Made by a program: the position numbers and the translations under genes. From assembly GCA_000146465.1 (NCBI GenBank), contig CP001952.1: a stretch of DNA of 64,000 nt; one strand, given 5' to 3'. Positions 15,264-56,818 of this stretch are shown one piece after another. Below the pieces are notes generated by a model, which was not told the origin of the DNA, did not search any database, and was given only the letters and a program-made list of their open reading frames with translations. Positions within the stretch are counted from its first letter, which is position 1. The number at the start of each line of letters is the position of its first letter.

Positions 15264-15574
15264 ATGGAGGGTAATCTTGAGACAAGGATATCTAGGGCCT
15301 TGGAGAATGAGTTCAAACCTGCAGCCTTAGAGGTTAGGAACACTACTGCCAATCATGTGGCCCATAGGAAGCCCGAAGATGGAAAAGTTCTTGAAACACA
15401 TTTTTACGTCAGGGTGAAGTCTTCGGCATTCAACGGAATGGTAAGTTAATGATCGCCGTATAATTTAAGAGATTTGCAGACAGGCATAGGCTTGTATATA
15501 AGGCACTTGAATTTGCTTTTGAAAAAGGCCTTCATGCAATTGAGATGGATTGCGATTCTGACGTCCAAGAGTGA
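15264..15574 (+). CDS. BOLA: BolA-like protein. Spliced as join(15264..15440,15470..15574), 93 aa.
   Basis: Exon 1 ends ...HFYVRVKSSAFNGM (BolA core). The track ORF stops 2 codons into GTAAGT. Removing a 29-nt GTAAGT...TAATTTAAG intron continues in frame with RFADRHRLVYKALEFAFEKGLHAIEM..., the conserved BolA C-terminal RHRLVY/HAL motif. Confidence 0.7.
15441..15469 (+). other. spliceosomal intron (29 nt) in the BolA-like gene
   Basis: 5' GTAAGT. 3' TAATTT-A-AG. Splicing restores the conserved BolA C-terminus in frame. Confidence 0.65.
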
Positions 15575-15719
15575 CTAGGATTATCTTTCTTTAATTTAAA
15601 TTTAATTTGATTTGATTTAATGGTGCCTTTGTCTTAGAAACTTCAATTTATACCTTTTTGGTAAAAAGAATTTATTCTTTTTTTTGTTTTACTTTAAATA
15701 ATGAACAAGGTTTTTGGCC

Positions 15720-51826: not shown

Positions 51827-53188
51827 TTATTCTTTGGTAATTAGTATTTCCGCATCCCTTCTCTTGGGCTTTGGCTCTAGGAAATAGAACTTCTTCAAGG
51901 ATTTCGCCACACTAACATCGCTTCCATCTGTTCCTTTCTTCTTCGGGTCTCCATCCTCTAAAGCCCTTACTAGGTCATTCCAACTAATTCTATCAACATT
52001 TCCATCATTTGCAAACGATATCTTCTTCAAAACATCCACAATCCTAGACTGTGCCATTCCATTCGTCATTCTAATCAAATCGTTGAATCTGTTTGTTATT
52101 TCCTTCTTACAATCTCCAAGATACTCCTCAAGAATCTCCAATCTTTCTTCGTCGTTTGGAAGCTGGAACTCGTAAACTCCCGAAAATCGACGCTTGAAAG
52201 CATCGTCAAGTGAGTCGTATAGATTGGTGGCTCCAAAGAGAAACACATTGCTGTTCACCTTATCGCATGCTCCCCCAATCGTGTTCAAAAACTCGGTTTG
52301 TGCCTTTAACGTGTAATCCTGTGATCTATCCGATCTCTTAGAAAAGAACACATCCACTTCGTCGATAAACACAAAGCTCGCCCAGTAGTTCCCATCATTT
52401 GCACTCTGGAACAACGCACGGATGTTCTTTTCTGTTTCTCCAACATATTTGTTGTTCAGCGAAGATGGTGTCACAAATGTTATTCTGGTGAGCGATTCCA
52501 TTTGCCTTGCCCTTACCAGCTTCTCATTGTGATCCATTCGGTCAAACTCCTCTTCCCCTATCTCGCTTCTCATCTTTAAGAACTTGATATTTAGATCAAC
52601 AAGATATATTAACTTCTTCATGAAAAGGGTCTTTCCTGTTCCAGGAGGCCCATGAAAAAGGAAGTTTCTTTGTGTTGTTTCTATGGTCTTGTGGAGTTCC
52701 TTCTCGGGAACAGTCCTTAGAAGGCTAACAATCTTTGTCACTTGTGAAATCACTTGTATCATCAAATCCTCCTTCCCAAAATAAGGAACATTCTCAAATG
52801 TTGATCCATCACGGAACGAAGGCTTGTCTTGATCTTCCATCTTCTCATCCTTCTCCTTAGACGTCTTTCCAATGCTCCCTCCTCCTTCTGAGACAATTAT
52901 TCTGTATATTACATATGCAAACACAAGGATAATTATTATAAGATAAAGGACTCCCTTTGTGCCTCCACTTGTATCTTTTGTCTTCTCTGTTTTGGGCTTT
53001 TTCTTTATTCCATAGTCCTTTAAGATCTTTCTATATATCAATGCTCCAAGAATATCGTTATTGATGTCTCTTTTCTTTTCCTCTGGTTTATTATCCTTTG
53101 TTCTGTTTTTCACTTTCTCATACTCTTCTTCATCCTCTGCCGTTTTGTTTTCTACTTTGTAGTTCTTGGACGCTTCTAAATCTCTCAT
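51827..53188 (-). CDS. membrane-anchored AAA+ ATPase (Msp1/ATAD1- or Bcs1-like; subfamily uncertain)
   Basis: Charged N-terminus, one TM helix (GVLYLIIIILVFAYVIYRIIV), then an AAA module: Walker A FHGPPGTGKT, Walker B VFIDEVDVFF, sensor-1 FLFGATN. Confidence 0.7.
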   Translation of the reverse strand: MRDLEASKNYKVENKTAEDEEEYEKVKNRTKDNKPEEKKRDINNDILGALIYRKILKDYGIKKKPKTEKTKDTSGGTKGVLYLIIIILVFAYVIYRIIVSEGGGSIGKTSKEKDEKMEDQDKPSFRDGSTFENVPYFGKEDLMIQVISQVTKIVSLLRTVPEKELHKTIETTQRNFLFHGPPGTGKTLFMKKLIYLVDLNIKFLKMRSEIGEEEFDRMDHNEKLVRARQMESLTRITFVTPSSLNNKYVGETEKNIRALFQSANDGNYWASFVFIDEVDVFFSKRSDRSQDYTLKAQTEFLNTIGGACDKVNSNVFLFGATNLYDSLDDAFKRRFSGVYEFQLPNDEERLEILEEYLGDCKKEITNRFNDLIRMTNGMAQSRIVDVLKKISFANDGNVDRISWNDLVRALEDGDPKKKGTDGSDVSVAKSLKKFYFLEPKPKRRDAEILITKE

Positions 53189-53396: not shown

Positions 53397-54561
53397 ATGG
53401 ATATCTCCGAAGAAAAGTTCGATGTACTGGATTCTGTGCATGTCTCTGGATTCCGAATATTGAAAGACAGTGGGGAGTTCTACCAAAGAATTAAGTTTCT
53501 TATGCAGAACTCGACATCAGTATGTATAGCATCCCTATTCTTTGGAAAGAACGGAGAAATGGAGGACATCATCGACATTCTCGAAGAAAGAAAGAGGAAG
53601 AATCTCATGACAATCATCTTCATCGATAAAAACAGAGGGACAGTCTTCGAAAGTCTGGAGTCTATAAAAAGAAGGGGTCTTGGCTCATTTTTTCATCTTG
53701 TAGATCTCTCTACGTCTTTCCTGCTTCCAAGGAGACTAAATGAACTTCTCAGAACCTTCCATACTAAGGCCTTGGTTTTCGATGGCCTAACCATATTATC
53801 TGGTGCAAACATGGATGCATCGTACATGACAAACAGAGTAGATAGGTAAGTGAAGCATTTTAATTTTAAGATATCTCGAGATTGACAGTAGGGAGCTGGC
53901 GGATATGATCAGATCTAGAGTCTTTGGAATAAGGCCCCCTTTGGAGGCTGGAAAAACTATATGCCAGGGCCTTCCAGTGTATGTAGGTATGTTTAAAGAG
54001 AAAGAGGAGCCTGCCATAGTCCAGTCGTTTCTGGAAGACTTCGACGAGATACACATTTCCACAGGATATCTGAACTTTCCGGCTCGCTATTTCAAAATGC
54101 TCCAAGGAAAGAAGGTGTCTCTCTATGCTTCATGCCCAGATAAGAACACCTTCGACTCGTTTGGACCCTTGGAGCGATTCATAGGCCCAGCTTATTCATA
54201 TAGCTTCTACAGAACTCTCAGATCAATTTCAAGCCTTTCCATTCACGAGCTGAAGAGGGACGGCCATTCATTCCATCTGAAAGGTAAGTGGAATTGTTAA
54301 TTTCTAGGCTTCTGGGGATTCAAGGGCAGAACAGCTGCAACCATCATAGGCTCATCAAACTTCAACAGGAGAAGCGTAGAAAGAGATGACGAAACAAATT
54401 ATCTAATAATCACATCCGACCCAGACCACGTTCAGAAGCTGAGGACTGAGGTGGAATATCTCAAGAGTAACTCAGAGGCAAGGACCTTGAAGCAGCTTAG
54501 AGGAAGGACATACCAGTTGGCCGTAATTCTATTGTTTCTGATTTTCAACAGATTCTTCTAA
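53397..54561 (+). CDS. PGS1: phosphatidylglycerophosphate synthase Pgs1 (PLD superfamily). Spliced as join(53397..53845,53871..54283,54308..54561), ~371 aa.
   Basis: Exon 1 ends HTKALVFDGLTILSGANMDASYMTNRVDR, the first HKD motif (human PGS1 HMKVYLFDNSVILSGANLSDSYFTNRQDRY). Exon 2 ends ...HSFHLKG. Exon 3 continues FWGFKGRTAATIIGSSNFNRRSVERDDETNYLII (human HAKGFW...IGSPNFGYRS). Both junctions have GTAAGT / TAATTT-N2-AG and keep the frame. The unspliced track shows three fragments. Confidence 0.75.
53846..53870 (+). other. spliceosomal intron 1 of PGS1 (25 nt)
   Basis: gtaagtgaagcattttaattttaag. 5' GTAAGT, 3' TAATTT-TA-AG. The junction sits between the conserved R and Y of NRVDR|Y. Confidence 0.7.
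54284..54307 (+). other. spliceosomal intron 2 of PGS1 (24 nt)
   Basis: gtaagtggaattgttaatttctag. 5' GTAAGT, 3' TAATTT-CT-AG. Phase-1 junction inside the second HxK(G)FW catalytic motif. Confidence 0.7.
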
Positions 54562-54582: not shown

Positions 54583-56586
54583 TCAGCATCTATCCAAATC
54601 CTTCTCAACCTTGCTGAACATGTGGTTAGCCCCCTTGAGCAGATCTTCCAGAGTCACCTCCACACAGCATCTTACAAACTCTCTCCCTGTCCTGCATAGG
54701 CTGTGGTATAAAATGTACTTTGCACGTTTTCTCGACATGCAGCTTGTGTTATGGACAAAGAACTGTGTATCGTTGAATATAGAGACATACGAGGATCCCT
54801 CGACAAGCTTTGCAACGTTCATGAAATATCCTGCACAGAACGACAGAACAATCTTACTTTCATCAGACTTGCATGGCCCATTGAACATGGAACATAGTTG
54901 CTTCTTTATCTTCACTGTCTGAAGCATTGCTCTAACATTTAGAAATGATCTCTTGAGATGTGATATCTTGAATCCAGTTCTTTCCCACATCCTATATATC
55001 TTAAGAAACGAGAAATGGTCTCCTCTTCTATCAAAATACAATGACTTTGCATCCAAAAACGCCTTGTGAGATTGGCTGTACTTTGGAATGTCCAGCCATA
55101 TGTTTCCCACACTTAGCATGGCTGCAATGATTGAAACATCCTCAAGGCACCCCAGATCCGAAGATACAATCAGGGAAATCGCTAGCTCCGGCTCTAGAGG
55201 GATTTTCGAGGCTCTGGCTCCAATCGGTGTTATCTTTCCATCTCCTCCTATGGCCTTGAGGTAGTACAGCAACTCTAGGGCCTTCCTCACATTCGAGGTA
55301 TCGGGCTTATCTATAAGGTCGAAGTTCACTATGTCATTCACTCCAATCGACTTCAGTTCAAGCACTGCCTTGGCAAGATTGCAGCAGAAAATCTCTGGTA
55401 TTGTATTCTCGCTCATCTCTTGGAATTCCTCTTTGGAGTATAACCGAAACACCTTTCCTTCCTGGGTTCTCCCTGCTCTCCCTGCCCTCTGCTTGGCCTG
55501 TGCCTTCGATATCCATGCCACCTCCAAGATGTCCATTCCAAAGGCCCCAGAGTATCTCATCTGCTTGGCTCGCCCGCAGTCCACAACATATTTTATACCC
55601 TCAATGGTTATCGATGTCTCCGCAATGTTTGTTGCAAGGACAATCTTTCTTTTCTTCGTCTTCTTGAACACAAGCTCCTGCTCCTCGGGTGAAAGCATGC
55701 TGTATATGCAATACACCTCGGCGTCGTTCCCTAAGATCTCTACAAGGATGTTTCTCCCGTTGTTGATCTCCTCCTTTCCCGTTAGAAACACCAATATGTC
55801 TCCTTCTTCCTCTGTCCTATGTATCTGTACCACTGTCTTCACAGCTTCGTCCAGATAATCCAAAGCCCCAGCCTTCTTCAAGAAAAATATCTCCAATGGA
55901 AACATTCTGTGGCGAATCTCAACCGTTTGGCATCTAAAAAACGAAATAAACTTCTCAGAGCTTAGCGTTGCACTCATTATAATCACCCGAAGATCCTTCC
56001 TCTTGCTCAGAATCGATTTCAGATATCCCAGAAGAATGTCTATGTTGACACTTCTTTCATGTGCCTCGTCGATAATCACAACATCATATCTATTGAGGCA
56101 TTTATCACTGACTATCTCCCGAAGCAAAATCCCGTCTGTAGCATATTTAAGCCTCGTTTTCTTACTCGATACATCGTTAAATCTTACAGAGTATCCAACC
56201 TCCATCCCTATCTTCACATTCATATCCTGGGCAACCTTCTTGGCAACACTTACAGCTGCAATCCTTCTGGGCTGCGTGCACACTATGCTCTTGTATCTCT
56301 CAAGAAGATATCTCGGGACTTTCGTTGTCTTCCCACATCCTGTGTCTCCTTCAATCAACAGAACTTGGCTCTTTTCAAGCTTCGAGAAAATCTCCCCCAT
56401 CTTATCTTTAACACTCTCTTCTCCAGATCTCTCCTCCTTCTTCTCCGTACTTATTAGCAAGTCCATTATTTCCTCCTCTGCTATGGAGTCCTTCTTGTCT
56501 TTGGCTAGGGGAAACAGTTCTGGAGGAATCTCTCGATTGATGCGTATTTCTGTTTCCATCCCTTTGAACACCGTTCTTTCTTCCAT
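54583..56586 (-). CDS. DEAH-box ATP-dependent RNA helicase, spliceosomal type (Prp43/DHX15-like by size; Prp2/16/22 not excluded)
   Basis: Motif I GDTGCGKTT, motif II IIDEAHERS, SAT, QRAGRAGR, then HA2 and OB-fold regions. Short (~85 aa) N-terminus. Track start at 56610 is GTG. ATG 56584-56586 has GGGG nearby. Confidence 0.85.
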   Translation of the reverse strand: MEERTVFKGMETEIRINREIPPELFPLAKDKKDSIAEEEIMDLLISTEKKEERSGEESVKDKMGEIFSKLEKSQVLLIEGDTGCGKTTKVPRYLLERYKSIVCTQPRRIAAVSVAKKVAQDMNVKIGMEVGYSVRFNDVSSKKTRLKYATDGILLREIVSDKCLNRYDVVIIDEAHERSVNIDILLGYLKSILSKRKDLRVIIMSATLSSEKFISFFRCQTVEIRHRMFPLEIFFLKKAGALDYLDEAVKTVVQIHRTEEEGDILVFLTGKEEINNGRNILVEILGNDAEVYCIYSMLSPEEQELVFKKTKKRKIVLATNIAETSITIEGIKYVVDCGRAKQMRYSGAFGMDILEVAWISKAQAKQRAGRAGRTQEGKVFRLYSKEEFQEMSENTIPEIFCCNLAKAVLELKSIGVNDIVNFDLIDKPDTSNVRKALELLYYLKAIGGDGKITPIGARASKIPLEPELAISLIVSSDLGCLEDVSIIAAMLSVGNIWLDIPKYSQSHKAFLDAKSLYFDRRGDHFSFLKIYRMWERTGFKISHLKRSFLNVRAMLQTVKIKKQLCSMFNGPCKSDESKIVLSFCAGYFMNVAKLVEGSSYVSIFNDTQFFVHNTSCMSRKRAKYILYHSLCRTGREFVRCCVEVTLEDLLKGANHMFSKVEKDLDRC

Positions 56587-56818
56587 TCCCAATTCTCCAG
56601 GGGTCCGCACTTATCTTCCCTATCCCCAGAAACATATATTTTTTTTGAAAAGACCCCTTGCTTGCCTAGCCGATAAGAACGAGTCTTTTGCCTTTTACTG
56701 AAGACTCCCATGGCTAGACACCGTGCCACACAGCAATTTTTGGAATGCTGATCAACTCAGCCTTGTTGTCGTAACATCTTCATCTAGCTTCTAAGATACA
56801 TCATCAAAAAAGAATACT

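Follow-up and report, generated by a model that had tools for sequence, protein, structure and literature searches.

Spliceosomal introns of very small size have been described in the microsporidian Encephalitozoon cuniculi, where the consensus consists of a 5′ splice site GTAAGT and a branch site TAAYTT (Irimia and Roy, 2008). In the parts of a later RNA-seq report that we draw on here, the introns of this species are given as 22 to 76 nt long, their 5′ and branch motifs are described as strict, and splicing was confirmed for all of the introns annotated up to then (Grisdale et al., 2013; PMC3629993). The same parts of that report single out ECU11_0850 as a gene with two introns, the upstream of which is spliced more than the downstream. 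A further approximately 20 short E. cuniculi introns, with no 5′ bias and mostly lying outside ribosomal-protein genes, are attributed to Lee et al. (2010) in the passage that Whelan et al. (2018; PMC6349667) devote to that work. An earlier note on the DNA analysed here had taken microsporidian introns to sit mostly near the 5′ ends of ribosomal-protein genes, and had found internal introns in a gene of lipid metabolism surprising for that reason; going by the passage in Whelan et al. (2018; PMC6349667), that premise was revised in 2010 by the enlarged E. cuniculi intron set and is outdated.

The window, by which we mean the whole 64-kb stretch of DNA that was analysed, belongs to chromosome XI of Encephalitozoon intestinalis, with a match of 100% identity in a homologue search. 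It contains the counterpart of ECU11_0850, which cluster-member names identify as the E. cuniculi GB-M1 orthologue (P0016, CAD25995.2). In a mechanical list of open reading frames this gene appears as three fragments on the same strand, at 53397-53849, at 53905-54300 and as a tail ending at 54561. The first exon (53397-53845, plus strand) starts at Met1, ends after two bases of the Arg150 codon and carries the first, canonical HKD motif. It is followed by intron 1 (53846-53870, plus strand), a phase 2 segment of 25 nt with the sequence GTAAGTGAAGCATTTTAATTTTAAG, which splits the Arg150 codon as AG/A and has a GTAAGT 5′ splice site, a TAATTT branch-site motif at 53861-53866 and a 3′ AG. Exon 2 (53871-54283, plus strand) opens with the base that completes the Arg150 codon and closes with base 1 of the Gly288 codon, where intron 2 (54284-54307, plus strand) begins; this phase 1 segment of 24 nt, GTAAGTGGAATTGTTAATTTCTAG, splits the Gly288 codon as G/GC immediately 3′ of H285-L-K287 in the second HKD-like motif, and again has a GTAAGT 5′ splice site, a TAATTT motif (54298-54303) and a 3′ AG. 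Exon 3 (54308-54561, plus strand) supplies the remainder of the Gly288 codon and continues to Phe371, with the stop codon TAA at 54559-54561. Joined together, the three exons comprise 1116 nt, or 371 codons and a stop, and the conceptual translation reads NRVDR/YLE and HLKG/FWGF across the junctions. Under the GT-AG rule the intron boundaries are unique.

The neighbouring genes both lie on the opposite strand to the PGS1-like gene, with an AAA-ATPase gene upstream (51827-53188, minus strand) and a DEAH-box helicase gene downstream (54583-56610, minus strand). The intergenic spacers measure only about 20-210 nt, which is typical of these compact genomes. Synteny with the AAA ATPase and the DEAH helicase is common to every locus that we fetched from Encephalitozoon and close relatives.

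We propose that both segments are real spliceosomal introns, very short and of the U2 type with GT-AG ends, and that they interrupt the E. intestinalis orthologue of ECU11_0850, a gene predicted to encode a PGS1-type CDP-diacylglycerol phosphatidyltransferase of the PLD superfamily, and we place the probability of this reading at about 0.95. In the mechanism we envisage, a reduced microsporidian spliceosome would recognise the strict GTAAGT together with a TAATTT only a few nucleotides away from the 3′ AG, and excision of 25 and 24 nt would generate the 371-residue frame with its two HKD-type motifs. By analogy with E. cuniculi, we infer that the reduced spliceosome excises both introns in E. 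intestinalis as well, where splicing is probably inefficient, and more so for the downstream intron; a literature search returned no splicing study of E. intestinalis. Unspliced or half-spliced transcripts would be expected to stop within the splice signals themselves. If intron 1 is kept, an in-frame TAA is encountered at 53847-53849, within its GTAAGT, and the transcript would encode the first 150 residues only. If intron 2 is kept, the in-frame TAA lies at 54298-54300 and is part of the TAATTT motif, so that the TAA of the branch site doubles as a stop codon directly after the catalytic H-x-K; such transcripts would encode 292 residues, lacking both the G-S-S-N of the second motif and the conserved C-terminus. 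Catalysis in the PLD superfamily uses two HKD halves. For this reason, and because the region downstream is strongly conserved, the 292-residue product is probably inactive.

The earlier note had placed the two GT-AG segments correctly to the base, and spliced translation confirms that removing both of them converts the three fragments into a single frame of 371 aa; it was also right in regarding the source organism as a microsporidian. Its implied novelty does not survive. An exact-sequence look-up shows the spliced 371-aa product to be identical residue for residue to the E. intestinalis ATCC 50506 protein P0013 (ADM12572.1, XP_003073932.1, UTX46428.1 and KAL7344580.1), which falls in the same cluster as a 292-aa match; the two-intron model is thus already the reference annotation. 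Splicing of ECU11_0850 has also been published, and for the genus neither the introns and their host gene nor the difference in splicing between the two introns is new.

Both introns start with GTAAGT and end with AG, in agreement with the published (GT)AAGT consensus. In both of them TAATTT ends 4 nt before the end of the intron and fits the TAAYTT or CTAAYTT consensus, but the base that precedes it is T and not C. Their lengths fall inside the known E. cuniculi range, in which most introns are of about 25 nt. We searched both strands of the window for the composite pattern GTA[AT]GT...TAAYTT...(0-6 nt)AG and obtained 3 matches, all of 30 nt or less, where about 0.1 would be expected from 200 first-order Markov randomisations; a chance origin of the motif is ruled out by this excess. 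All 3 matches restore reading frames that are supported by Pfam.

The window also holds a third short intron, of 29 nt (GTAAGTTAATGATCGCCGTATAATTTAAG), at 15441-15469 on the plus strand, in a gene spanning approximately 15264-15575. Once it is removed, a 61-aa open reading frame continues into the downstream exon, and the product is a BolA-like protein of 93 aa (Pfam PF01722, 3.4e-20). This 93-aa product has already been annotated (KAL7348454.1), and other E. intestinalis models of the BolA-like protein differ slightly from it, at 91 aa (XP_009161910.1) and 95 aa (KAL7344541.1).

We compared the locus with those of E. cuniculi (L001), E. hellem (L002) and E. romaleae (L003), with a second E. 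intestinalis assembly (L004), with a contig from the Logan set SRR21023573 (L005) and with a contig from the JGI metagenome 3300073837 (L006), as well as with intronless loci from Vairimorpha bombi (L007 and L008) and Nucleospora cyclopteri (L009). On the gene strand the composite pattern finds exactly two homologous sites, and no others, in L001-L004 and L006, and the GTAAGT...TAAYTT...AG segments occupy the same two codon positions and phases in all five of these loci. Intron 1 is 25 nt long in each of them, and the four named Encephalitozoon species agree at 22 of its 25 bases despite variation at the flanking third-codon positions. Intron 2 has invariant signals and a variable interior, and ranges from 23 to 25 nt among the relatives (E. 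cuniculi 25, E. hellem 23, E. romaleae 24, L005 25 and L006 24 nt). The orthologue in L005 (1501-2645; 55% protein identity and the same synteny) retains a 25-nt intron 2, which is the only site the composite pattern finds on its gene strand, and reads seamlessly as ...GAC AGA TAT CTT GAG... at the position of intron 1. This precise loss of intron 1 provides an independent confirmation of the junction.

The orthologues of V. bombi and N. cyclopteri are uninterrupted open reading frames of 1101 and 1143 nt that can be translated directly. In a protein alignment, V. bombi, N. cyclopteri and chytrid PGS1 are collinear over both junctions, with the motif RxDRY[LFYV] at intron 1 and H-x-K-G-[FLI]-W...IGSSN[FY] at intron 2, and a phmmer alignment to the solved PssA structure 3hsi likewise spans both. 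A look-up of the exact spliced-junction sequences, for both junctions, in a metagenome contig collection gave 0 matches, a null that is uninformative. As the orthologues outside the Encephalitozoonidae are intronless, both introns are restricted to the lineage of Encephalitozoon and species closely related to it. The pattern, with both introns in Encephalitozoon, intron 1 lost in one relative (L005) and neither in Vairimorpha or Nucleospora, is a small but clean data point on intron gain and loss in the Encephalitozoonidae.

The same DNA could be read as a pseudogene or an assembly error, in which a frameshifting insertion of 25 nt and a nonsense-bearing insertion of 24 nt disrupt the gene and no splicing takes place. 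This is what a naive reading of three separate fragments would suggest, and some automatic annotations indeed end the product at 292 aa, but five or more species keep both insertions at the same positions with GTAAGT, TAAYTT and AG intact, while their flanking codons gain synonymous changes, and the exons are open and conserved up to the C-terminus. The same sequence is moreover present in several independent assemblies, and splicing was seen in the E. cuniculi orthologue, according to the portion of Grisdale et al. (2013; PMC3629993) used here. We rule this reading out on the cross-species conservation of the splice signals together with the open, conserved exons, and consider it almost certainly wrong. 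Another reading accepts the introns as real and takes the retention of intron 2 to be regulated and functional rather than splicing noise, such that the 292-aa protein, with one complete HKD, would have an activity of its own, for example as a homodimer. The portion of Grisdale et al. (2013; PMC3629993) considered here lends this some substance, as it reports that the two introns of ECU11_0850 are spliced to different extents, describes significant changes between time points in one two-intron E. cuniculi gene, and suggests that 3′-truncated products may be functional; it also states that E. cuniculi has no known SR-type splicing regulators, which speaks against regulation. The segment IGSSNFNRRS...DDETNYL and the hydrophobic C-terminus, which follow intron 2, are among the best conserved parts of the protein, intronless orthologues included, and such strong conservation 3′ of intron 2 indicates that selection acts on the full-length product. 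In L006 (1095-2253), where both introns are present, the 24-nt intron 2 lacks an in-frame stop, so that the gene caller translated straight through it (P0008, '...HLKGKWAFLISGFWGF...') and put KWAFLISG, 8 residues, into the HKD-like motif; retention in this locus would thus insert residues without truncating the product, which argues against a conserved truncated isoform. Functional, regulated retention is on this evidence very unlikely. The still more specific idea that differential retention of intron 2 is a conserved means of limiting production of the enzyme post-transcriptionally, or yields an isoform with a single HKD and a function of its own, and is not a by-product of an inefficient, reduced spliceosome, would seem slightly less probable again.

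With two genuine introns as the preferred reading, a separate alternative leaves the gene model untouched and concerns the enzyme, which could be a phosphatidylserine synthase of the bacterial, PssA-like PLD type instead of a phosphatidylglycerophosphate synthase. Membership of the PLD superfamily is common to both and is seen in two Pfam matches, to PLDc_2 (PF13091) over residues 263-338 (2.6e-11; 43.9 bits against a cut-off of 27) and to the PLDc active-site motif (PF00614) over residues 120-141 (1.1e-4; 22.5 bits against a cut-off of 21.9). The latter corresponds to the canonical first HKD motif, H122-T-K124-ALVF-D129-GLTILS-G136-A-N138 (53760-53810, plus strand), which is conserved in all of the orthologues aligned. 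The second, degenerate HKD-like motif, H285-L-K287-G288...I-G302-S-S-N305 (54274-54360, plus strand), lies in the PLDc_2 region and is split by intron 2 after K287; it has Phe at the canonical Asp position and a longer spacing. The phosphatidylserine synthase reading can point to the PssA equivalog NF006946, the only named bacterial family that the protein matches (2.1e-16), to solved-structure relatives that are all PLD-type PssA enzymes (3hsi, 1.1e-7, and 8yr5), and to several of the deposited names, among them the original GenBank 'CDP diacylglycerol serine O-phosphatidyltransferase'. With NF006946, however, the protein scores 59.9 bits, far short of the curated cut-off of 314, so that it is not a PssA equivalog and identity with bacterial PssA is unsupported. 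In the homologue search with the spliced protein, orthologues of 370-371 aa were found in E. romaleae, E. cuniculi and E. hellem and more distant ones in V. bombi and N. cyclopteri; the nearest non-microsporidian matches were the chytrid proteins P0011 (3.6e-21), a hypothetical protein, and P0012 (8.1e-18), named as a PGP synthase, and no bacterial PssA rose above threshold. Alignment further shows that chytrid PGS1 has the same degeneracy in the second motif, in which PssA 3hsi keeps the Asp. Deposited names for the protein vary, some giving PS synthase and others PGP synthase, and the UniRef cluster is named PGP synthase. Taken together, the family evidence supports filing the protein as a PGS1-like member of the PLD superfamily, and a phosphatidylserine synthase is unlikely, if appreciably less so than the readings weighed above. 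The PLD-family, PGS1-like host gene suggested in the earlier note is in this way borne out by the PLDc_2 profile and the chytrid PGS1 alignment, and its observation that one intron lies inside an HKD-like motif agrees with the aligned position of intron 2, immediately behind the H-x-K in the second motif.

Several deposited models depart from the two-intron structure. KAL7346555.1 and KAL7348492.1, from two recent E. intestinalis assemblies, are 292 aa long and have intron 1 spliced and intron 2 not spliced, and the full 371 aa are given in the older E. intestinalis reference and in a third assembly. Positions 1501-2404 of L004 are the same DNA as 53397-54300 of the window, and the 292-aa model there runs into the stop inside intron 2; as this DNA carries the same intron, the 292-aa models most likely reflect the annotation pipeline and not biology. 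They cut the enzyme before the remainder of its second catalytic motif and need correction. In E. cuniculi the models AGE94897.1 and UYI26288.1 (366 aa) lack the conserved RYLEVQ (L001 3450-3492), which implies that they use an acceptor AG situated 18 nt beyond the one conserved for intron 1. Intronless orthologues keep DRY, and the 25-nt model of intron 1 is therefore the correct one in E. cuniculi. Beyond annotation quality the importance of the locus is small, its outputs being these annotation fixes and the pattern of intron presence and absence; the result also validates the detection of introns from sequence alone.

Compared with eukaryotic PGS1 and with bacterial PLD-type PssA, the protein shares the two-lobed architecture of the PLD superfamily, with H-x-K...G-x-N in each half, and alignments to them are collinear over both exon junctions. 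It differs in length, having 371 aa where chytrid PGS1 has about 540 aa and PssA about 450-460 aa, and from PssA also in the missing Asp of its second motif. With respect to XP_003073932.1 and ADM12572.1 there is no difference at the protein level over the 371 residues.

As regards the introns, those of the classical ribosomal-protein-gene set (Katinka et al., 2001) resemble the two described here in their length of about 25 nt, their GT-AG ends, their strict 5′ site and their TAAYTT motif, whereas the introns of the PGS1-like gene lie internally, interrupting codons 150 and 288 out of 371 in a gene of lipid synthesis. The closest system is ECU11_0850, which is orthologous and syntenic, and has its introns at the same codon positions and in the same phases, with the same GTAAGT, TAATTT and AG; intron 1 differs between the two species at 1 of 25 bases. 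The differences are that intron 2 is one base shorter here (24 nt) than in E. cuniculi (25 nt) and has a different interior, and that the measurements of splicing all come from E. cuniculi. Both introns thus belong in the second set, described in 2010 and without 5′ bias, and are ordinary members of the documented short introns of Encephalitozoon.
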